Below are positions 5,393 to 32,413 of a DNA stretch of 32,413 nt, piece after piece (the stretch's first letter is position 1; every line of letters begins with the position of its first letter). The position numbers and the translations under genes were made by a program. Under the pieces are notes generated by a model that did not search any database, was not told where the DNA came from, and saw only the letters and a program-made list of their open reading frames with translations. The stretch covers positions 1 through 32,413 of the forward strand of contig PEAD01000032.1 of assembly GCA_002753335.1 (NCBI GenBank), written 5' to 3'. The DNA is from Nitrospirae bacterium MYbin3 (GTDB lineage Bacteria > Nitrospirota > Thermodesulfovibrionia > Thermodesulfovibrionales > Dissulfurispiraceae).

Positions 5393-7306
5393 CTATCTTC
5401 CGGCATCAATTACGTCTAGGGCTTTTAGTTCAATGTCCTGATTGTGCAGCGCAGCGCCTTTAATTTCTTTAAAGCGCTTTTTTGTTTTTTTGTCCGAATT
5501 TTTGATGAAGTGTTCCATTTTCTCAATTTTGGAGTCAACCTTTTTTGAGATTGCAAGATATTTTGCATATTTCCCCTTTTCTGAGGGTATCGAAAAATCT
5601 CCGGGCGCATGCCATTTATCTTTAAACGACAGCCATGAAGCGAAGTCATCAATCTTGTAGCCTTTAAGAGGTTTTATCAGTGTGGTGTTTTTTATGTCCG
5701 CTATTCGTAATCCTTCTTTGTCAGCGATGATTTTGTGGCCGCCTTTAAATGGCTCTGCTCCTTGGTCGTCCATGAATTCCCAGCTGGAAACCGTAATCTG
5801 TTTCTCTTTGTGGCAGCTGTCGCAGTTGCGCGCTTTTCCGTAAGGATGCGCTGCCTGTTCTATTTCGAGCCAGAGCAGATGGTTATTGTTTGTGCCGGAT
5901 TTTTGAGTTCCTATTACGTAGTATGCATCTCTCGTCTCTCCGTTTGGCCACCTGAACATAATTTTTTCGGAGGGCTTAACCTCAGGCTTTATATTCCCTG
6001 CTGCGTGAGGCCATACCTTCACAGGCATCCAGATTTCTTTTTGGTCTTTCATTATTATGGGAGGAGACTGAATGCCGTAGTAAAGCGAATACTTTTTAAA
6101 CGGGTTTTCCTCTCCAGCAATCTTTCCGGGCCCCCATACGGTAATCTGATATCCTCTCAACTCGCTTATATGGCATGAAGCACAATCCAGTTTTTTATGT
6201 ATGCTTTTCGCATGAGCTTCCTCTATCTCAATATGGCAGTCCTGGCAGTTAGCCTTTCTCTGCATGTCTCCCATTCCTTTCGGACCTGTAGTGTGGCAGT
6301 CAACGCAATGTATTTTCTTTGTATAATGAACGTCCGGCTTCATACCTGTTGGAATAGAATAGTCTTCACCCATGTATGTTTCGCCACGTCTGCTCTGCAT
6401 TGCACCGGGATGGCAGATGCTGGTGCCCCGGCCATATCCGCCGCAGCTTTCGGAGGAAGGTTTTGCTGTAAAATTATGCACACCTTTTTCTCTGTTCGGC
6501 TCGTAGTGGCAATCCAGGCATCCGGCATGACATGCATTACAGAACCTTTGTTTATGTGATGCCTGTTTTTTTGAAAAAGGAACATTGAGGTCCCGTGCTA
6601 TGTCCTCTGTGTTTTTGAACGAGAAATTCGAATTGTGCAAAATTTCTGGAGGAGCAATATCGGCAAAGGATGGGCCGCAGTTGTGTGGACCGTATGGTTC
6701 AAGCCATGTCCTCATGGTGCGCTGCCTGAAGTTTGTAGCCATTATAGTGGTTTTGAACTGCTTGAGCTGCTCCGGATGGCAGTTTGCTTTTCCGCAGGTC
6801 TTTGCCGCAATTTCTGGATCAAAATTGAAGGTATCACGGTTTCTGTCATGCCATAGAACTGTCCTTACTTCCGGAGATGGTTCAAGTTCGCCTCCATTCT
6901 CTGTCTTAGGCAGCATCATTCTTATTCTGTCGATGCCTGATGGCAAGAGCGCATGCGGATAAACTTTTTTTCTGTCTAGTATATTTCCGTTTTCACCAAG
7001 CATAAGAGCCGAAAGCATTCCTTTGTGAGCTTTTGCAGCATCCTTTGCCCGGCCGTCTCCCAAATGGCATTCATGGCATTTAACATTCGGATGCCTGCTT
7101 TCTTTTTCGGCCGCTTGAGGATTCACATAAAGATCTGGAAATCCCAACTCTGTTAGTTTGCCTTTGTCTGAGTGGCATTTTATGCACTCTACACTCGAAT
7201 TCTGCCATGACTGATATCCAAGAAGGGCTATAACAAGAATGAACTGAAGAAAAAATAGAACAACTGTTTTAGGATTTATGTAATCGCTTAAGGTGCCGAC
7301 TTTCAT
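5393..7306 (-). CDS. Membrane-anchored multiheme cytochrome c
   Basis: N-terminal hydrophobic helix; 8 CxxCH motifs (CIKCH, CHECH, CNACH, CLDCH, CVDCH, CQDCH, CASCH, CDSCH) plus one CX4CH and one CX9CH. Confidence 0.9.
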   Translation of the reverse strand: MKVGTLSDYINPKTVVLFFLQFILVIALLGYQSWQNSSVECIKCHSDKGKLTELGFPDLYVNPQAAEKESRHPNVKCHECHLGDGRAKDAAKAHKGMLSALMLGENGNILDRKKVYPHALLPSGIDRIRMMLPKTENGGELEPSPEVRTVLWHDRNRDTFNFDPEIAAKTCGKANCHPEQLKQFKTTIMATNFRQRTMRTWLEPYGPHNCGPSFADIAPPEILHNSNFSFKNTEDIARDLNVPFSKKQASHKQRFCNACHAGCLDCHYEPNREKGVHNFTAKPSSESCGGYGRGTSICHPGAMQSRRGETYMGEDYSIPTGMKPDVHYTKKIHCVDCHTTGPKGMGDMQRKANCQDCHIEIEEAHAKSIHKKLDCASCHISELRGYQITVWGPGKIAGEENPFKKYSLYYGIQSPPIIMKDQKEIWMPVKVWPHAAGNIKPEVKPSEKIMFRWPNGETRDAYYVIGTQKSGTNNNHLLWLEIEQAAHPYGKARNCDSCHKEKQITVSSWEFMDDQGAEPFKGGHKIIADKEGLRIADIKNTTLIKPLKGYKIDDFASWLSFKDKWHAPGDFSIPSEKGKYAKYLAISKKVDSKIEKMEHFIKNSDKKTKKRFKEIKGAALHNQDIELKALDVIDAGR

Positions 7307-15234: not shown

Positions 15235-18200
15235 ATGGTCGAGAATTACCTCGATATATCTAAGAGCGTTATGATCTCTTCGCCTGCTGGTTCGGGCAAG
15301 ACCGAGAAGCTGGCGAGAAGGTATATAGCTTTGCTTAAACACGGTTCTGGTGTTGAGCGCATTCTGGCGATAACTTTTACCGAAAAGGCGGCTGCAGAGA
15401 TGAAGGAGAGAATCCTTAATATCCTGCAAAAAGATGATCCAGCAATGTTCGATGCGGTGCGGGCCAAGATGCCCAAGATGAGGATATCTACTATACATGC
15501 CTTTTGTCTTAAACTGCTTAAACGTTTTTGTCTGGAACTCGGTATGGACCCTGCCGTCAAGGTCATGGACAGTTTTGACTCAGACAACCTTTGGAATGAT
15601 TCTGTCTATGAAACCCTTATCGAGGACGGCAGGTCCGAAGAACGGCTCTTTTTGCAGGCGCTCAGAGATAAGGGAATCAAGGGCTGGGGCAGACTTTACA
15701 AACAGCTCGAAGAGCTTCATTCTCAAAGACCGCTTATAGAGCTTGGATTAAGAAAACAGAGCACAAGTGGGCCAAACAGTGATTGCAGCGGGATCGAAAT
15801 GCTGTTGAAGCTTTACAGGGGATGCCTTGAAAACTATACAAAGAAAAAGCGGCAGCGGCACCTGCTAGATTACAACGACCTTGAACTTGCGGCCTATGAT
15901 GCCATATCTCAAAATCCGGAGTGGCTTAATGTCCTCTATTCATTTGACGAGCATACCGACCATATTCTTGTCGATGAATTTCAGGACACCAGCTCTCTTC
16001 AATGGAAAATTGTATATAAGCTTACAGAGGAGTGGCGGGCAGGGCAGGGGGCAAAGAGGGAATCTGGCATCAAACCCACCATATTTCTGGTCGGAGACGA
16101 CAAGCAGTCTATATATTCATTCAGGGGGGCTGATGTCAGTATTTTCAGGAATGCACGGAACAGCCTGTCAGAGTGGCTCGGCGCTGAATATCATTTTGTG
16201 GAGGTTAAAGAGAATTACCGCAGTCTTCCTGCAGTCGTAAATTTTATAAATACTTTTTTTGAGAAACTTATGCCCAAGGGCTTATATGACGGAATGAGAG
16301 TTGAGTATTCCCCTTTTGATGCTGTAAGAACAGGATTGGGTGATGTAAGTTTGAGCGTAATTGAAGGCAGCGGGGTTTCGAGGGATGACAGGCGTTCAGA
16401 AGCGTTTCATGTAGCCTTAAAGATAAAAGATATGGTACGGAAAAAACTTGTTTATGACAGGGACAAACTAAGGGAATGTTCATTCGGTGATATGACGATA
16501 CTTCTCAGAAGCAGGACTCATCTAGGGCTTTTTGAAGATGCTCTAAGCCAAAACCAGATCCCGCTGCAATCACTGTTTGGCCCACTTGTGCTCTGTTTTC
16601 TTAATCCAAGCTCTATAAGCCAAAACCAGATCCCGTTTGTAGTTGTCAAAGGAATCGGTTTTTACAATACTCCTGAAGTGGCTCTTCTTAAGGATCTTTT
16701 ATTTTCGATAATAGACCCTCTTGACGATTACAGTCTTTTCAGTGTCCTGCGTTCACCTCTTTTTTCGATTAGATATGACTCAATTCTTGCGCTTGTCAGG
16801 AGTGTGGGAGCGAATAATTCTGGAGTAGGGGTTATTTATTCTGCGCTTCAAGCTCTTGCAGGCAGTTACAGCCCATCAAATCCAAGACAGAAGACTCTAT
16901 GGGCAGCCACCGAGGATAACAGGCTTGTTGAAGCTGCTGTGACGGTTAAGAGATGGATTGACGGTTCCAGAACCAAGGGCTACTCTCTTCTAATTGAGGA
17001 TATATTGGTAGAATCAAGATTATGGGGCTATCTGCATGAGAAGCAGCGGTATCTGAATGTAAAGAAATTTTTGAGACTTGTCGAAGGCTTTGAAGATGCG
17101 GGCTGCTCCGGGACAGAGATAAAAGAGAAGCTGATGAAGGCTTCTGATTATTCTGATGAGGGCAAAGCCAATGTTAACACAGAAGGCATGGACGCTGTAA
17201 AAATAATGACAATACATGCCTCGAAAGGTCTTCAGTTTCCGATAGTGTTTTTTACCTGTCTTGATGAAAAGCAGAAAGGATTCTCTAATACCGTTGCTAT
17301 GGAAGAAAGAGAAGACGGCTACTGGTTTGAGCATGAAGAAGATTCGGCTGCCAGAAAAGAGATGACTCTTTTTCAAAAGCAGAGAGAGAAAACAGAGGAT
17401 GAGGACAAAAGGCTTTTCTATGTTGCAGCTACAAGGGCCATGGACTGTCTTTGCATGTCAGGGGTTTTGAATAAAAAACCTTCCGGCAGACTTGCATATC
17501 TTTTTGATGTATTCGAACTTGGCATAGGAAAAGAAAGATTGAGTGATGAAGAGCTGCCTTTTGCGTTCAACTACATTAGTCCTGACAGTGCTGTCGAAAC
17601 GCAGGTTGAACAGCCATCAGAGTTTCACAAAAGCGCTCCCTCAAGATACGCAAAGATTGGTGCGGGACAGCGGAGAATAATTCATATTGAGCCTTTAGAT
17701 TACAAACCAAGACTCAGCTTTATGGATGTTACCGAAGAGGTTGACAGAATGCATAAGAAGCACGGTGATGACTGGATAACTCTCGGAAAGGTTTTGCACA
17801 AAGTTTTCGAAGGTGCTTCAAAAGGAATGATAAATCCTAAATATTTCTCAAAAAAGGCGCTGCTGATTTTGAGAAGAGAGGTGCGCTCTGATTTTTTATT
17901 TGCTAGACTGAGCGGTGTTTTGAATGTAGAAATCGAGAAAATTAAAGCATCTCCTTATTTCTCTGAAATAGTGCTGCCAAAAGAGAATTCCTACTCAGAG
18001 CTTCCATTTGTTCTCGAAAAAGGCAAGGCTGTGTATAACGGCAGAATAGACAGGATTATAATAAGGGATGGAAAGGCGTTTATTTACGACTATAAAACGT
18101 ATCCTGTGTCTGACAAAGAAATACCGGAGCTGAAAAAACATTATTCGTTCCAGATGACACTATACAAAGAAGCTGTCGAAAAACTATTCGGTATGAGCGC

Positions 18201-18252
18201 AGAATCTTATATCTTATTCTCTTATCAGCCATCACTGTTTTTTGTTGCCTGA
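15235..18252 (+). CDS. addA: AddA/RecB-like UvrD-family helicase-nuclease
   Basis: AGSGKT, AITFTEKAA.EMK.RI, VDEFQDTS, VGDDKQSIYSFRGA, MTIHASKGLQF, LFYVAATRA, and C-terminal GRIDR..YDYKT nuclease. Confidence 0.85.
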   Translation: MVENYLDISKSVMISSPAGSGKTEKLARRYIALLKHGSGVERILAITFTEKAAAEMKERILNILQKDDPAMFDAVRAKMPKMRISTIHAFCLKLLKRFCLELGMDPAVKVMDSFDSDNLWNDSVYETLIEDGRSEERLFLQALRDKGIKGWGRLYKQLEELHSQRPLIELGLRKQSTSGPNSDCSGIEMLLKLYRGCLENYTKKKRQRHLLDYNDLELAAYDAISQNPEWLNVLYSFDEHTDHILVDEFQDTSSLQWKIVYKLTEEWRAGQGAKRESGIKPTIFLVGDDKQSIYSFRGADVSIFRNARNSLSEWLGAEYHFVEVKENYRSLPAVVNFINTFFEKLMPKGLYDGMRVEYSPFDAVRTGLGDVSLSVIEGSGVSRDDRRSEAFHVALKIKDMVRKKLVYDRDKLRECSFGDMTILLRSRTHLGLFEDALSQNQIPLQSLFGPLVLCFLNPSSISQNQIPFVVVKGIGFYNTPEVALLKDLLFSIIDPLDDYSLFSVLRSPLFSIRYDSILALVRSVGANNSGVGVIYSALQALAGSYSPSNPRQKTLWAATEDNRLVEAAVTVKRWIDGSRTKGYSLLIEDILVESRLWGYLHEKQRYLNVKKFLRLVEGFEDAGCSGTEIKEKLMKASDYSDEGKANVNTEGMDAVKIMTIHASKGLQFPIVFFTCLDEKQKGFSNTVAMEEREDGYWFEHEEDSAARKEMTLFQKQREKTEDEDKRLFYVAATRAMDCLCMSGVLNKKPSGRLAYLFDVFELGIGKERLSDEELPFAFNYISPDSAVETQVEQPSEFHKSAPSRYAKIGAGQRRIIHIEPLDYKPRLSFMDVTEEVDRMHKKHGDDWITLGKVLHKVFEGASKGMINPKYFSKKALLILRREVRSDFLFARLSGVLNVEIEKIKASPYFSEIVLPKENSYSELPFVLEKGKAVYNGRIDRIIIRDGKAFIYDYKTYPVSDKEIPELKKHYSFQMTLYKEAVEKLFGMSAESYILFSYQPSLFFVA
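15732..15795. repeat. 64-bp perfect inverted repeat, donor copy
   Basis: GCTTATAGAGCTTGG...GATTGCAGCGGGATC is the exact reverse complement of 16557-16620. Confidence 0.95.
16544..16635. repeat. Inverted 64-bp copy (16557-16620) bracketed by a 20-bp direct repeat (16544-16563 and 16616-16635)
   Basis: TAAGCCAAAACCAGATCCCG occurs twice, 72 bp apart; the protein shows SQNQIP twice. Confidence 0.95.
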
Positions 18253-26425: not shown

Positions 26426-27700
26426 ATGAAAAAGGTTTTTGTTCTTGATACTAATGTTTTGATTCATGATCCTGAATCCATTCTCAGGTTTGAAGATAAT
26501 GATATTGTTATTCCTATAAGCGTTATCGAGGAACTGGACGAGATGAAAAAGGGGCATGGAGAGATTCCATATTCTGCGCGCCATGCACTTAAATTGATAG
26601 ACTCTTTGAGGGAGGGCGAGAACGGAGAGCATGTCAACATTTCTAAAGGGGTTCCGGTTCCCAACGGCAAAGGCGGTAAATTAAGGATAGAGATGGATGA
26701 GAAATTGTCTGTGCTGCAGAAGCACTCGCCGGACAACAGGATAGTTTCTGTAGCATTAAATCTTTTCAAGAGTGACCGCAATGTGCCTGTAGTTATGGTT
26801 TCTAAAGATACGGCGGTAAGAATAAAGGCAGAGTCTCTTGGGATACCTTCTCAAGATTACAAGAACGACAAGACCTCCATATTTAAAGAATACGGCAGAG
26901 TGCTTGAAAACACAGATTATCCCAATGGCATTCATTCTGTAAGGTACATGAGGAACGGCAGCGATATTTTCAGGATTCAAGGCGAGGACAAACAGACAAA
27001 GATAAAGCCTGGCAAAACTCTGGATAACATAGCGCCTAAAAACATAGAGCAGGAATGCGCCATTGACGCCCTAACTAATCCGGATATAGAGATTGTCGCA
27101 CTTACAGGCACCGCAGGCACAGGCAAAACACTGCTTGCGCTTGCAGCAGCCATACACCAAACCACCAAGAAATCTCCCCTTTATGAACAGGTGCTTGTTG
27201 CAAGGCCTACCATCCCGCTCGGAGGCGTTGATATTGGTTTTTTGCCGGGCGATATAAAAGAAAAGCTGTCTCCGTGGATGCAGCCGATATTTGACAACCT
27301 TGAGGTTATAGTAAATACTCCTCGTGGCCTGATGAAGGATAATGCTGCAGTATCTTCAAAATATAAGAACTACCAGTATTTAATCGATGCAGGTATCTTG
27401 CAGGTTGAAGCCTTAACATATATCAGAGGGCGTTCATTGCCGGCTCGTTATTTCATAGTGGATGAGGCTCAGCAATTGAGGCCTATAGACATTAAAACTA
27501 TTATAACAAGGTGCGGTTCGGGCACCAAAATAGTATTCACCGGCGATCTTGAACAGGTGGATCATCCGTTTCTTGATTCGCATTCCAACGGGCTTGCTTA
27601 TTTGATAAGCAGATTCATTAATGAAGAGGCTTTTTGCTATCTGAACCTTACCAAAACAGCCCGCTCAAAGCTGGCAGAGAGAGCCGCAAAGCTGCTTTGA
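26426..27700 (+). CDS. PhoH-family protein with N-terminal PIN domain (PhoH2/YlaK type)
   Basis: VLDTNVLIHDP PIN start, GTAGTGKT, GFLPGD..EKL.PW, YIRGRS and IVDEAQ. Confidence 0.92.
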   Translation: MKKVFVLDTNVLIHDPESILRFEDNDIVIPISVIEELDEMKKGHGEIPYSARHALKLIDSLREGENGEHVNISKGVPVPNGKGGKLRIEMDEKLSVLQKHSPDNRIVSVALNLFKSDRNVPVVMVSKDTAVRIKAESLGIPSQDYKNDKTSIFKEYGRVLENTDYPNGIHSVRYMRNGSDIFRIQGEDKQTKIKPGKTLDNIAPKNIEQECAIDALTNPDIEIVALTGTAGTGKTLLALAAAIHQTTKKSPLYEQVLVARPTIPLGGVDIGFLPGDIKEKLSPWMQPIFDNLEVIVNTPRGLMKDNAAVSSKYKNYQYLIDAGILQVEALTYIRGRSLPARYFIVDEAQQLRPIDIKTIITRCGSGTKIVFTGDLEQVDHPFLDSHSNGLAYLISRFINEEAFCYLNLTKTARSKLAERAAKLL

Positions 27701-27738
27701 TTTGCTTCATGCCTTAACATGTGATATAAATTTAGACG

Positions 27739-28215
27739 ATGCAAAAATACGCAGCATTTTTCTATAGGTTTCCTGTTCTAGGGCTATCGTTAATTTTAAC
27801 GCTGGCCTTTCTTGCGGCTTATTCCGATCTTGAAGCAAACGACTGGAGACGCTACGATGAAAGTGAATACCTTTATTTTTTATACAATAAAAAAAGCATC
27901 CAATGGGTTGACAGTGATACGGCAAGAGTTAGATGCAAAAGTTCGCTCAAAGGTGAGAAGGGAAAAAACTGGCTTTCAGAAAAGATGAAACAAGGCATTG
28001 TGCCTGCGCGTGATGTCGAAAATATCAGCCTGGCCACTTTTCTTATAGATATAAAATGCTCTAATCGTATGATGAGGGAACTCTCATACAATTACTTCGA
28101 TAAAAGCGTAACCGTTCTTTCACCATTTGATACGTTTTCTGCGAACTGGAAATTTATCACACCGGGGAGTGTCGGCGACAAACTGCATAGTGTGGTATGT
28201 CAGCCACGCAACTAA
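27739..28215 (+). CDS. Secreted surface-adhesin E-like protein
   Basis: N-terminal hydrophobic signal; W..Y...YNKKSI, IDIKC and W..ITPGS..D.L...VC; resembles 658-1065. Confidence 0.6.
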   Translation: MQKYAAFFYRFPVLGLSLILTLAFLAAYSDLEANDWRRYDESEYLYFLYNKKSIQWVDSDTARVRCKSSLKGEKGKNWLSEKMKQGIVPARDVENISLATFLIDIKCSNRMMRELSYNYFDKSVTVLSPFDTFSANWKFITPGSVGDKLHSVVCQPRN

Positions 28216-29066
28216 ATTGTTATGTCTGAAGTATGTTCTAAGTAGCTTTTTTCTATCTCTTGCTTGATGTCCTGTATGCTGCTTTCTGCAATGCCTATAT
28301 CGGTCAAATCAAGAGTGGCTGAAGTATTCGGATTTTTCAACCCTATGCCTATATCAAGGCAAAGCTCATCTGCAGCCTTGACTATTCTGCATATGTTTAA
28401 GTCCAGTTCGTCTCTATTTTTAGGCAAGCTATCAATAGTTTCTTTGTGATGATATGCCATAACCAACTCCATGGTGATAGGCAAGCGCCATTTTTTTGCT
28501 ATAAGACTGCCAGCCTCGCAATGATTGAATCTTAAGAATTCTTCTTCAGCCTTTATTATCGAAATACCGTCTCTATATGCCTTGTCTGTTATAGCTTTGT
28601 AATCGTTTGGGATGCAGTTCAATAGAACACTGCTTCCCAGATCATGTACCAAGCCAGCTATATGAGCTTCTTCAGCCGGAGCTAGATGCGTTTTGTAAGC
28701 TAAAATAGATGCTGCGATCGAAACGCCCAGGCTATGCTCCCACAGAGCCTTTTCATAAACAGTATTCTTTTTATAAAGGTCTTTCAAGGCGGAGGCAACG
28801 ACTAGCGAATGCATATTATTAAAACCAATGAGCATCATCGCTGTTGATATGGAGCATATATCCCTGCTCCTGCCGAAGTAAGGGGAATTCGCCACTTTCA
28901 AAATTCTTGCCGCAAAAGCCTCATCCCTGCTGATGATTTTTTCGAGCTCATCTATTGATGATTTGTCATTATTGGTTATAGCAAGCACTTTAGCTGCTAT
29001 TGCAGGTATGCTTGGAATATCAACAGTTTTTAGAATGATATCTTCTAATTTTTCATTATTGCCCAT
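28212..29066 (-). CDS. HDOD domain protein
   Basis: IPSIP.IA, ILKVANSPYFG, LWEHS, AGLVHDLG, H.E.G..IAKKWRLP and YHH; likely start is ATG 29066. Confidence 0.9.
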   Translation of the reverse strand: MGNNEKLEDIILKTVDIPSIPAIAAKVLAITNNDKSSIDELEKIISRDEAFAARILKVANSPYFGRSRDICSISTAMMLIGFNNMHSLVVASALKDLYKKNTVYEKALWEHSLGVSIAASILAYKTHLAPAEEAHIAGLVHDLGSSVLLNCIPNDYKAITDKAYRDGISIIKAEEEFLRFNHCEAGSLIAKKWRLPITMELVMAYHHKETIDSLPKNRDELDLNICRIVKAADELCLDIGIGLKNPNTSATLDLTDIGIAESSIQDIKQEIEKSYLEHTSDITI

Positions 29067-29172
29067 ACTATGAATAATATCAGAACTAGGCTTGAGTCGT
29101 CCATTTTGAGGCATCAACAGAATAAACGTTATCTTGATTAGCAGACGTTTTTTTCTGTAACATTCGTGTAAT

Positions 29173-30327
29173 ATGATGCCTTTGTATCTTTCGGAAAACT
29201 GTTCTCTAAAATGGCTTGAAACCCCATCCGTCTATAATTCAAAAACTGACGAGCTTTATGAACTTGACGAGAAAGGTTTTGAGTTTCTTCGTTCATGTGC
29301 GCATCAGTCTGGCTGCAAAAGCTGCAACCCTGATGCCCAATTTGTTGATTACTGCGTATCTGAGGGAATTCTTCAAACAGAGCATGTCTCTATTGTCAGA
29401 GCGCCTGCGATTAAAGCTCCTGTGCCTTCTTTAAGGTACCTTGAGCTGCAGATTACGGATAAATGCAATCTCAGATGCAGGCATTGCTACTTGGGGGAAC
29501 CGCAAAAGAATGAGCTGTCTCTTGAAGATATAAAGCTTGTGCTTGATGAATTTGAGGTCATGCAGGGACTGCGTCTCTTAATTACCGGCGGAGAGCCTCT
29601 TATGCACAGCAGGTTTTCGGCAATAAATGAAATGTTGGCAGAATATAGTTTCAGGAAGGTGCTCTTTACTAACGGTCTTATGCTTGATAAGGGCGCTATA
29701 AAAGGCCTTAATATTGATGAGGTTCAGTTCAGTATTGACGGCATCGAAAAAGGACATGACGCATTGAGAGGAAAAGGCACACATAAAAAAACGATTGCAA
29801 GCTTGAACGAGGCACTAAAACTGGGGATGCAAACCTCTGTAGCCACTATGGTTCACAATAAAAACCTCGACGAGTTTGAAATCATGTCCCAAGTCTTTGC
29901 AGATATGGGGATAAGAGACTGGACGGTTGATGTACCCTGTCTTTCCGGAAACCTTATGCTTAATCCTGAAATGCATGTTCCTCCGGAAATAGCCGGACGA
30001 TTAATGCGATATGGGTTTGGAGGAGGCTTGCACGGAGGCGGTGAGGGGTACGGCTGTGGACTTCATCTTGCCGCAGTTACTCCGACAGGAGATATATGCA
30101 AGTGCGCTTTTTATGCAGATTTTTCTGCAGGGAAAATCAAAGATGGATTGAGAAAAGCATGGGCTTCAATAAAGCCGATAAATATAAATGATATGGAATG
30201 CGCCAAACCGGTCTGCGCTTATATTGACGCTTGCCGCGGCGGCTGCAGGTTCAGGGCAGAGGCGGCAGGTGGTGCAGGAAGAAGAGACCTTTACAAATGC
30301 CATGAGTTTGGTATAATAAATACATAA
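29173..30327 (+). CDS. Radical SAM/SPASM enzyme with N-terminal RRE(PqqD)-like domain, candidate peptide maturase
   Basis: CNLRCRHC, TGGEP, SIDG...HD.LRG; SPASM C-X10-G-X4-C ... CX4CX5CX3C-X17-C; about 80-aa N-terminal extension. Confidence 0.9.
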   Translation: MMPLYLSENCSLKWLETPSVYNSKTDELYELDEKGFEFLRSCAHQSGCKSCNPDAQFVDYCVSEGILQTEHVSIVRAPAIKAPVPSLRYLELQITDKCNLRCRHCYLGEPQKNELSLEDIKLVLDEFEVMQGLRLLITGGEPLMHSRFSAINEMLAEYSFRKVLFTNGLMLDKGAIKGLNIDEVQFSIDGIEKGHDALRGKGTHKKTIASLNEALKLGMQTSVATMVHNKNLDEFEIMSQVFADMGIRDWTVDVPCLSGNLMLNPEMHVPPEIAGRLMRYGFGGGLHGGGEGYGCGLHLAAVTPTGDICKCAFYADFSAGKIKDGLRKAWASIKPININDMECAKPVCAYIDACRGGCRFRAEAAGGAGRRDLYKCHEFGIINT

Positions 30328-30333
30328 TCAGGC

Positions 30334-30349
30334 TGGCATGAAGCTAGCT
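30334..30349 (+). promoter_or_regulatory. sigma54 (RpoN)-type -24/-12 promoter
   Basis: TGGCATG-AAGC-TAGCT versus the consensus TGGCACG-N4-TTGCW; exact GG-N10-GC spacing. Confidence 0.55.
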
Positions 30350-30376
30350 AAACCCTAAGAAAGGGAGGTGTTTAAA

Positions 30377-30439
30377 ATGACAATTAAAAAGGTATCGAAG
30401 AAAGGCTCCACAACCTGCAAGTGCAAAGGTTCATGCTAA
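30377..30439 (+). CDS. 20-aa Cys/Lys-rich peptide MTIKKVSKKGSTTCKCKGSC, candidate RiPP precursor
   Basis: RBS AAGGGAGGTG (30361-30370) 6 nt before the ATG; TAA at 30437-30439; lies between the rSAM/SPASM gene and a strong terminator. Confidence 0.8.
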   Translation: MTIKKVSKKGSTTCKCKGSC

Positions 30440-30462
30440 TTTTTTTCTTCAACTAAAGAATC

Positions 30463-30498
30463 AATATAAAGGGGTCTTTCATGACCCCTTTATATTTT
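30463..30498 (+). terminator. Intrinsic terminator
   Basis: Perfect 14-bp stem AATATAAAGGGGTC-tttcat-GACCCCTTTATATT with a T-rich 3' side. Confidence 0.85.
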
Positions 30499-30538
30499 CA
30501 GCCTTTATATTGAGTTCTGGTTTGTGCAATAATACACG

Positions 30539-32269
30539 ATGTTTTTCCTAAAGACACTCATTCTGCTTTTGCTTTCTTTGTCCCTTGCTTCGTGTTCGTC
30601 ATTTTCAAAGTGGCGTACTAGCGAAAATGACTCTAAGGTTTCGATTGCGGAGACTGAGAACGAAGCTTCGTACTACGAATATCTGCGCGGCTACGAATCA
30701 GAAATGAAAGGCAAATGGGGCGAAGCTCTTATTCATTACTCTGAAGCTGCCAAGCATGATGAAAAGTCCGCCTACCTTAAAACACAGATGGCCCGTATGC
30801 TTGTTAAAACGGGAAAGGTTCCTGATGCTGTTGCTATGCTTGAAGATGTTGTAAAAACAAACGCTAATGCAGTTGATGCACTGATATTATTAGGTGAACT
30901 TTATAATACTCAGCGCCGTGTGGACGATGCCATTGGTATTTATGAAAGAGTTATTAAACTCGCTCCTGCAAAGGATGAGGCGATGCTTATGCTCGGCGTT
31001 CTTTATGCAACGAAAGGTGATATCAAAAAAGCACAGTCTTTTCTAAATGTTCTGATAGAAAAAGATCCTGAAAGTGTACTGCCTATATATTATATGGGAA
31101 CAATACACCTTGAGACCAAAAATTACGAAAAGGCCGAAGAGTTTTTCAGTAAAGCGATAACGATACAGCCTAATTTTGACTCAGCCCATATGAGTTTAGG
31201 TTTATTGAAAGAGATAAAAGGCGATCTTGAAGAAGCTGAAAAAAACTATAAAAAAGCTCTGGATATTAATCCTTACAATTTATATGCGAGAGAAAGGCTT
31301 ACACAGCTTTATCTGTCAGAAAAATCATTCGGCAAGGCCATAGCCGAACTTGAACAAATACTAAAATCGATGCCCAAAAACCTTGAAGTGCATCAACGTC
31401 TGGGGCTGCTTTACCTGCAGGAGAAGCAGTATGACAAAGCTATTTTAGAGTTCAAGATGGTGATTGAGGCAAGGCCTAATGATATTGCATCTAGGTACTA
31501 CCTGTCGCTTGTGCTTAGCGAACTGAAAAGATATGAGGAAGCCGAAGCTGAACTTAAACATATAATTTCTATAGACCCCAAAAATACCAACGCATTTTTA
31601 AATCTTGCACTAATTTATACAGGACAGAAGCGCTATGATGACGCTGCAAAAGTTTACGAAGAAATAATCAGCTATGAAAAACAAAAAAACGAGATCTATG
31701 CTTATTTAGGAAACATCTATATCCAGGCAAAGAATTACAAAAAAGCAGAAGAGGTGCTAACAGACGCGCTAAAACGGTTTGGAGATACCGATGAACTGCT
31801 GTTTAATCTGTCGGTAGTCTGCGAAAAAACGTCAAGGTTTGACCAAATGGTTGCGTATCTAAAGAAAACCATAGAGATAAACCCTAAGCATGCGGACGCA
31901 CTTAATTATTTGGGATACAGTTATGCAGACAAAGGCATACTTTTGGATGAAGCCCTGTCTCTTATTCAACGGGCGCTCGAGCTGAAACCTGACAGCGGTT
32001 ATATAATTGACAGTCTAGGGTGGACGTATTTCAAGCTTGGCAAGAATGAGGAGGCTCTCAAGTTATTGTTAAGGGCTCTTGAATTTGTTAAGGACGACCC
32101 TGTTCTGCATGAGCATGTAGGAGATGTTTACGAAGCTTCAGGCAAGCATAAAGAGGCTATTGAGCAATGGAATGAGTCATTGAAATACCATGAAAAAGAA
32201 GAAGGTCTCAAAGATAGGGTTGAAAAGAAAATAGAATCCGCGAGGCGTACAATAGAGCAGGTAAAATGA
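30539..32269 (+). CDS. Multi-TPR lipoprotein
   Basis: Lipobox LAS-C; many TPR units; ALNYLGYSYAD and YIIDSLGW.YFK motifs typical of the TPR protein found upstream of ispE. Confidence 0.9.
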   Translation: MFFLKTLILLLLSLSLASCSSFSKWRTSENDSKVSIAETENEASYYEYLRGYESEMKGKWGEALIHYSEAAKHDEKSAYLKTQMARMLVKTGKVPDAVAMLEDVVKTNANAVDALILLGELYNTQRRVDDAIGIYERVIKLAPAKDEAMLMLGVLYATKGDIKKAQSFLNVLIEKDPESVLPIYYMGTIHLETKNYEKAEEFFSKAITIQPNFDSAHMSLGLLKEIKGDLEEAEKNYKKALDINPYNLYARERLTQLYLSEKSFGKAIAELEQILKSMPKNLEVHQRLGLLYLQEKQYDKAILEFKMVIEARPNDIASRYYLSLVLSELKRYEEAEAELKHIISIDPKNTNAFLNLALIYTGQKRYDDAAKVYEEIISYEKQKNEIYAYLGNIYIQAKNYKKAEEVLTDALKRFGDTDELLFNLSVVCEKTSRFDQMVAYLKKTIEINPKHADALNYLGYSYADKGILLDEALSLIQRALELKPDSGYIIDSLGWTYFKLGKNEEALKLLLRALEFVKDDPVLHEHVGDVYEASGKHKEAIEQWNESLKYHEKEEGLKDRVEKKIESARRTIEQVK

Positions 32270-32270
32270 T

Positions 32271-32413
32271 ATGTGCTCTTCGGCTCACTGCTGCTTTGAA
32301 GTATCTGTTCATGACGCTGTCTTAAAAATCAGAACCCCTGCCAAGATTAACTGGTCTCTATATGTTTTGGACAAACGGCCGGATCGCTTTCATAATATTT
32401 CTTCTCTGATGCA
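32271..32413 (+). CDS. ispE: 4-(cytidine 5'-diphospho)-2-C-methyl-D-erythritol kinase, N-terminal fragment (window edge)
   Basis: Frame reads ...LKIRTPAKINWSLYVLDKRPDRFHNISSLM, matching the IspE PAKIN..L.V...R.D..H motif; the only in-frame ATG before the motif is 32271. Confidence 0.85.
   Translation, partial: MCSSAHCCFEVSVHDAVLKIRTPAKINWSLYVLDKRPDRFHNISSLM

Follow-up and report, generated by a model that had tools for sequence, protein, structure and literature searches.

The window analyzed here, i.e., the whole 32,413-nucleotide stretch of contig PEAD01000032.1 of Nitrospirae bacterium MYbin3, carries on its plus strand a gene for a 384-residue radical SAM/SPASM enzyme (29173..30327; Pfam Radical_SAM, PF04055) and, 49 nt after it, a candidate precursor peptide gene of 20 codons (30377..30439). 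The latter runs from the ATG at 30377 to the TAA at 30439, and its product, MTIKKVSKKGSTTCKCKGSC, comprises a K/R-rich leader (residues 1-13) and a C-K-C-K-G-S-C core (residues 14-20). A previous sequence-only reading had proposed this pair as a minimal RiPP system, and it described a Shine-Dalgarno sequence before the peptide and a perfect 14-bp inverted repeat after it. Both elements were found again: the former, AAGGGAGGTG, lies at 30361-30370, 5' of the peptide ATG, and the latter, an intrinsic-terminator-like repeat with a 6-nt loop, was detected by a repeat scan at 30463..30496 (minus strand in the scanner listing; the plus-strand arm ends T-rich). The locus is flanked by an HDOD gene on the opposite strand and a TPR gene downstream, and, as had been claimed, neither a peptidase nor an exporter was present among the adjacent genes scanned. 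A pattern search of this genome found a single copy of the peptide gene, with Lys at position 17 (the Lys17 form). The 20-residue sequence has no hydrophobic stretch when read by eye, and the peptide matched no Pfam or NCBIfam model. Elsewhere in the window, a 637-residue protein with many CxxCH motifs, likely a multiheme cytochrome, is encoded on the minus strand at 5393-7306, and in an AddA-like helicase ORF (15235-18252), SQNQIP is present in two copies 25 residues apart, suggestive of either a short duplicating insertion or a slip in the assembly.

The predicted structure of the enzyme (pLDDT 91) begins with three strands followed by two helices and places an RRE/PqqD-like domain at about residues 1-80. 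The CxxxCxxC motif (C98, C102, and C105) is 100% conserved in 110 aligned family members, both bacterial and archaeal, and the ten cysteines formed by this motif and the seven SPASM cysteines (C295, C311, C343, C348, C354, C358, and C376) are conserved at 97-100% in the same alignment. The best-matching folds were SkfB (Z 26.2, rmsd 5.0, 327 aligned residues), SuiB (25.8), and CteB (24.1), with anSME at 23.7; the alignments to SuiB and SkfB begin at residue 4-8, and those to SkfB, SuiB, and CteB extend to residues 369-381. Residues 1-82 gave a TM score of 0.71 against a PqqD cluster, which is below the Atlas bar for family naming, and Pfam returned no match on residues 1-86 and no SPASM match on the enzyme. 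The conserved cysteines, the best folds, and the PqqD-like N-terminus agree with the RRE, radical SAM, and SPASM architecture proposed earlier, the RRE being assigned by predicted structure. The fold does not name the reaction, since the top folds differ little and span distinct chemistries (e.g., C-C bond formation by SuiB and thiol oxidation by anSME).

Comparison with NCBIfam radical SAM models, which the sequence-only reading had suggested, yielded no named family. For the window enzyme, none of the best 25 of 79 families reached its cut-off (best score 81.8 versus 650), and the same held for three archaeal members among the best 25 families for each. The closest named proteins belong to Nitrospirota, including one from Dissulfurispira thermophila with 60% identity. 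The enzyme is present as a single copy in 162 of 401 Nitrospirota genomes. In a midpoint-rooted tree of 44 members, a hand-picked subset of the 110 aligned, the bacterial, Archaeoglobus-type, and Asgard clades are well supported; no donor is claimed. The RRE-like domain is kept in all of these clades.

The 20-codon ORF had been taken for a gene even though it was too short for the ORF track, and its conservation beside enzyme orthologues and at the protein level establishes that it is one. When loci were anchored on the enzyme only, a start-codon ORF of the same type adjoined 28 of 30 Nitrospirota orthologues, so that the expected K-rich/CxCxxxC micro-ORF was indeed found there; one of the two misses is a contig end, and that genome has the peptide on a different contig. 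The peptide also adjoins 10 of 11 orthologues in the phylum of Archaeoglobus sp. JdFR-22 and 4 of 7 in Asgard archaea. All 42 of these enzyme-anchored peptides, a set free of pattern selection, carry C-K-C-x3-C. Among the 28 Nitrospirota peptides, pairwise differences at codon positions 1, 2, and 3 numbered 944, 1161, and 3943, and the differing codon pairs were synonymous in 2833 cases versus 1694 that were not, i.e., variation has the synonymous bias that had been predicted for a translated gene.

A strict core-plus-stop pattern occurred in 144 of the 401 Nitrospirota genomes, once in each, and a reversed control pattern gave 0 matches among those listed for the same scan. Scanning named genomes (19 of 64 collection parts) yielded at least 118 loci, of which 90 were judged by reading to encode family peptides and 28 to be chance matches. 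Most came from Nitrospirota records, and the other record titles were Archaeoglobaceae, Promethearchaeota, Thermoleophilia, Actinomycetes, Rokuibacteriota, Deltaproteobacteria, and Thermodesulfobacteriota. A family peptide also occurs in a 627-nt record titled Candidatus Wolfebacteria (L151), which is possibly misbinned. The consensus, M-x-I-[KR]-K-V-x-K-K-x-x-x-T-C-K-C-x-x-S-C, was derived from 143 distinct peptides at 167 de-duplicated single-core loci, a partly pattern-selected set in which four entries were read from ATC/ATT and probably have 19 residues. Lys15 is the only invariant non-Cys residue; G or S occupies position 18 and C position 20, and two peptides end in C-A. No UGA was found at a Cys position in the 42 enzyme-anchored peptides.

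Several loci have individual neighborhoods. At L086:230-1700, downstream of the enzyme, a methyltransferase gene and a cupin-like gene lie between two identical copies of the peptide. In two delta-type bacteria, an ATP-grasp-like gene, which could encode a tailoring enzyme, lies directly 3' of the peptide (L113:3215-4126 and L123:216-1127); a 2-thiouracil desulfurase/DUF1722 gene is located near the peptide in the former, and a similar gene in the latter. Two c-type cytochrome genes come after an unlinked Lys17 peptide at L122:3080-4276.

The peptide and the enzyme are inherited together. Across the 401 genomes, 142 have both, 2 only the peptide, 20 only the enzyme, and 237 neither; when five of the 20 enzyme-only genomes were rechecked with a looser pattern, a family peptide was found in all five, and in one of them (G070) only a copy with His at position 17 (His17) was found. 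In addition, a third small protein with seven invariant cysteines occurs in 156 of the 401 genomes, as counted with a double-unit profile that misses single-unit forms (e.g., those beside G079, G120, and G125), and 150 of these 156 also have the enzyme. Archaea and some bacteria have it as a single unit of 55-80 residues; in most Nitrospirota, two units are fused. In the JdFR-22 phylum, where 11 of 251 genomes have the enzyme, the order peptide, cysteine protein, enzyme is found at 10 of 11 loci, and the eleventh stops at a contig edge; in archaeal operons, the third protein gene overlaps the enzyme start. The genome of the window encodes the duplicated unit on another contig (C35, L179:5465-6114), where it begins at the stop of cutA (CutA1). 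Because the third protein co-occurs with the pair and is operonic in archaea, the supposed minimal two-gene unit is in fact a three-part system of peptide, enzyme, and third cysteine protein. This protein matched neither Pfam nor NCBIfam; no known fold matched its model (pLDDT 72) above Z 3.5, and the Atlas returned only unnamed clusters, null results that do not show a new fold.

Asgard archaea provide a natural dissection of the peptide. The enzyme is present in 7 of 151 Asgard genomes, with the cysteine protein behind it in all seven. In five of these (G415, G443, G454, G559, and G568), the precursors are 39-42 residues long and consist of one leader followed by three C-K-C-G-x-x-C cores; of the remaining two, one has a single core, and none was found in the other. 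Since only residues 14-20 are repeated, the leader/core boundary is fixed, in line with the bipartite peptide that had been described at the window locus. Multi-core precursors are a known RiPP design, and of all the indirect evidence the triple cores point most strongly to the peptide being processed as a substrate. One Asgard locus is flanked by two genes in which a P-loop motif was read by eye (L091:456-989 and L091:3141-3668) and which we take to be small-GTPase-like. Collectively, these data make it very probable that the peptide is the substrate of the enzyme, with the RRE binding the leader and the enzyme modifying the core.

The RRE/radical SAM/SPASM layout is common to SkfB (6EFN), CteB (5WGG/5WHY), SCIFF maturation, and PapB, and the first two are among the best-matching folds. 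Sactipeptide and ranthipeptide maturases further share with the present system a Cys-containing leader/core precursor and seven SPASM cysteines. Identity to SkfB and CteB is, however, ~20%, and the enzyme scored 52.1 bits against the PapB model (NF047865; cut-off 340) and 70 bits against the StsB model (cut-off 625). Unlike those systems, the one studied here includes a third conserved protein, extends to archaea, and has neither an exporter nor a peptidase next to it; its precursor is 20 residues long, with a seven-residue C-K-C-x3-C core that lacks a conserved Asp/Glu acceptor. A SCIFF precursor has six cysteines in about 45 residues, whereas this peptide has three in 20 and no NCBIfam match. 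Similarly, the PapA acceptor motif is C-x3-D/E, whereas the family has G/S at position 18 and C at position 20.

SbtM (TIGR04082) is also a SPASM radical SAM enzyme that acts on Cys of a short peptide, where it forms a -4 Da thiooxazole that keeps the thiol (PMC9204691). Such a product would suit metal binding. The present enzyme scored 54.4 bits against TIGR04082 (cut-off 350), and neither the GGUG motif given for SbtA (PMC9204691) nor a selenocysteine codon occurs in the 42 enzyme-anchored peptides. Bufferins and methanobactins are Cys-derived copper chelators as well; they are made by MNIO (DUF692) enzymes, whereas the present enzyme is a radical SAM protein, and no MNIO maturase was found among the neighbors scanned. 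Thiooxazoles are the copper ligands of bufferins, which also require a partner protein (PMC11626156); the present peptide is far shorter and lacks a hydrophobic N-terminal Sec signal sequence. Its K/R-rich leader resembles the K/R-rich leaders of methanobactins (PMC3621798), without a model match.

Enteropeptins, which are sactipeptides, contain a thioether ring from Cys to the adjacent N-methylornithine (PMC12395415), and this thiomorpholine is, by analogy only, a precedent for a Lys15-Cys link; no enteropeptin-type arginase or methyltransferase recurs at the loci studied here. The CrpA/CrpC system of the archaeon Methanococcus voltae (TIGR04463) has an RRE, thioethers on repeated Cys motifs, and a suspected metal role, and the seven SPASM cysteines of CrpC are read as leaving one iron free for a substrate thiol (PMC13692751). 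CrpA is a 29-kDa protein with C-x-x-Q/D motifs, whereas the present precursor has 20 residues and C-K-C-x3-C; the screen for CrpA could not see this family because only proteins of at least 100 residues were kept (PMC13692751). In summary, the system works like an RRE-dependent radical-SAM RiPP, and it differs in specific features from SCIFF, PapB, SbtM, bufferin, and CrpA/CrpC.

Literature searches, with subscription papers outside their scope, did not find the exact core strings, and topical queries, judged from titles and the beginnings of abstracts, gave no description of the system. The family is likewise absent from the supplements, possibly incomplete, of PMC10288494, PMC9062424, and PMC7470986; the first of these contains two CKCK precursors, which are unrelated. 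The earlier failure to recognize a named precursor thus holds, given that the peptide has no family match and that no paper was found in the searchable literature. We conclude that this is a real, cross-domain radical-SAM peptide system, undescribed in that literature.

Clues to function come from a His17 subfamily, for which a start-codon family ORF was found at 36 of 44 metagenome loci. Copper-marker matches lie within 2.6 kb of 35 of 42 His/Tyr17 loci versus 0 of 125 other loci, a comparison in which positives are favored because the queries (P1B ATPase, YHS, multicopper oxidase, SHOCT, and DUF4396) were drawn from His17 loci. Counted by clusters of related loci, in which kin are not independent, 19 of 25 are positive. 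By Pfam alone, a marker is present at 19 of 36 metagenome His17 loci, with 93 of 130 neighboring ORFs submitted and many contigs shorter than 3 kb. We take YHS, SHOCT, and DUF4396 to be copper-associated, not proven copper proteins. The three neighboring ATPases tested all scored above the TIGR01511 copper cut-off. At one archaeal locus (L215), a P-type ATPase fragment, a CopZ-like gene (below the cut-off of its model), a His17 peptide, the cysteine protein, and the enzyme follow one another in one direction. All five His/Tyr17 genomes checked also have a Lys17 copy, and four of the five have the enzyme. Only 1 of 42 His/Tyr17 loci adjoins an enzyme gene, so these peptides could act unmodified.

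Because histidine-containing relatives of the peptide are encoded in copper-export operons, we consider the product likely to bind metal. Of the options that the sequence-only reading had left side by side, i.e., a signal, metal, or redox role, the evidence from this gene context favors metal. Counting against a copper role, the window copy is a Lys17 form, the sole family peptide found in its genome, and has no copper neighbor, and none of the 125 non-His loci has a copper marker; copper-type ATPases are encoded elsewhere in the genome of the window. We regard a metal-handling role, in the sense of soft-metal buffering, as an evenly balanced proposition.

The Lys17 and His17 genes also differ in how they appear to be expressed. 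Upstream of the window peptide, a promoter-like site (TTTACA, a 16-nt spacer, and an extended -10, TG.TATAAT; 11 of 12 sigma-70 bases) lies at 30290..30317 on the plus strand, within the final codons of the enzyme gene; it is the best of 12 matches in 27000-32413, where 11.8 lowest-grade matches are expected by chance. The motif TGnTAYAAT occurs 45-110 nt upstream of the peptide at 52 of 75 enzyme-linked bacterial loci and at 5 of 10 clearly unlinked ones versus 0 of 41 His17 loci, the genome background being 0.003 per such interval. A perfect stem of at least 7 bp follows the peptide at 61 of 109 bacterial non-His loci and at 4 of 42 His17 loci. His17 genes mostly lack the promoter, leader hairpins, and terminator, as expected of operon-internal genes. 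Judging from these signals, the peptide gene is likely transcribed as a unit of its own, and not merely as the tail of the enzyme operon.

Folding predicts two hairpins in the leader of this putative transcript, both on the plus strand: hairpin 1, with a 7-bp stem and an AUGAA loop (30331..30349), and hairpin 2, CCCU-AAGAA-AGGG (30353-30365; 30353..30370 with the rest of the Shine-Dalgarno sequence), in which the 3' arm belongs to the Shine-Dalgarno sequence, AAGGGAGGUG. Of the cells at 50 loci selected by the loop motif, 89.9% pair versus 70.2% after shuffling, with 100 double-sided changes, and slid controls gave 32-61%. Over 49 distinct loci chosen in the same way, 87.7% of cells pair in hairpin 1, where both partners have changed in 6 of 7 pairs; the corresponding values for hairpin 2 are 93.8% and 1 of 4 pairs. 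Under a strict rule, hairpin 1 is present at 43 of 122 non-His loci, at 0 of 41 His17 loci, and at no archaeal peptide locus. As hairpin 2 covers part of the Shine-Dalgarno sequence, we propose that an RNA-binding factor likely controls translation.

Three candidates for a wider identity of these hairpins were set aside or kept in reserve. Rfam, searched at E up to 5, returned 12 matches that all fell short of the gathering score, and the best of them, CRISPR-DR47 (30 of 39 bits), was rejected, the match being hairpin 2 plus the Shine-Dalgarno sequence. A genome-wide AUGAA-hairpin regulon was likewise rejected: 7 of 759 sites have stems of at least 6 bp versus 0-8 for control loops, i.e., no enrichment. 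CsrA is retained as a lead for the hairpin reader and no further, given that CsrA loops reportedly carry GGA, whereas those seen here mostly carry GAA. Five loci (L101, L120, L125, L141, and L165), three of them titled Thermodesulfovibrio, have three tandem AUGAA-loop hairpins; the peptide there probably has 19 residues, and the three with long flanks have no enzyme gene.

Taking these lines together, the reading we prefer, with a probability of roughly 0.5, is that a co-inherited trio operates in which the enzyme oxidizes the C-K-C-x3-C core into a cytoplasmic peptide that binds a soft metal, e.g., Cu(I). The predicted RRE domain would grip the lysine-rich leader, and Cys-directed chemistry would proceed via a substrate thiol bound at an open auxiliary-cluster site, as suggested by the seven SPASM cysteines and by what has been read for CrpC. 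The third protein would be a required partner. The Lys17 copy, as in the window, would serve housekeeping and be expressed from a separately regulated transcript, and the single enzyme would act in trans to mature the His17 copies encoded in copper operons. As no signal sequence, exporter, or peptidase is in view, the product probably remains cytoplasmic.

As to the reaction, our tentative first choice, by analogy, is a thioether from one Cys to a neighboring carbon, favored over a thiooxazole because Lys15 is the only invariant non-Cys residue and because the enteropeptin ring sets a precedent for Cys-to-neighbor linkage. An SbtM-type thiooxazole would be a serious rival close behind, in that it keeps the thiol and is the copper ligand of bufferins; we would rate it as somewhat less probable than the thioether, and on a par with a reaction of some other kind. 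C-terminal decarboxylation as the family reaction is weakened by the internal Asgard cores and by the two peptides that end in C-A.

A different and less probable account is that this radical-SAM RiPP system makes a signaling, redox, or cofactor-like molecule, comparable to SCIFF ranthipeptides or mycofactocin, and that copper operons merely recruited a His paralogue. The absence of copper markers from all 125 non-His loci would fit such a role, as would the setting of the main copy, which is single, lies among housekeeping genes, and has its own promoter-like site and structured leader. Among the loci listed, however, no sensor, exporter, or redox-enzyme cluster recurs beside the peptide, and His17 goes with copper genes in bacteria and in one archaeon alike.

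It is unlikely that the third protein is the enzyme's substrate, acquiring protein thioethers as in CrpA/CrpC or QhpD, with the peptide traveling along as an unmodified, metallothionein-like binder or regulator. This protein co-occurs as tightly as the peptide, has seven invariant cysteines, and overlaps the archaeal enzyme start, and protein substrates are on record for such enzymes (PMC13692751); yet the peptide leader is conserved across domains, its core is triplicated in Asgard archaea, and the RRE-like domain is kept in all enzyme clades. Least of all do we credit the notion that the ORF encodes a regulatory leader peptide, or exists only because an RNA element is conserved there, and lies beside the enzyme by accident: a covarying 5' RNA and a terminator do flank it and some lineages have it unlinked from the enzyme, but it is conserved as protein, archaeal copies without hairpins keep both peptide and enzyme, co-occurrence holds when the two are unlinked, and the downstream gene varies.

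A large orphan radical SAM family, found in 162 of 401 sampled genomes of its phylum and in two archaeal groups including Asgard, gains a defined, tiny, and testable candidate substrate. Copper is toxic to Fe-S enzymes. Bufferins and methanobactins, the RiPP copper chelators considered here, are made by MNIO enzymes, which use oxygen. It is conceivable, although we consider it doubtful as a whole, that the present system is their O2-independent counterpart, combining new Cys/Lys chemistry, an intracellular copper buffer, a new partner family, Asgard multi-cores, His-tuned copies, and a new AUGAA-loop leader RNA that would control translation in bacteria. If true, a copper chelator made by a radical SAM enzyme would show how anaerobes could buffer copper. 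Cultured hosts exist, with an orthologue in Dissulfurispira thermophila and the peptide in records titled Thermodesulfovibrio. Even if the metal role fails, the invariant C-K-C core, the family-less partner, the natural triple cores, and the covarying leader RNA remain as targets.
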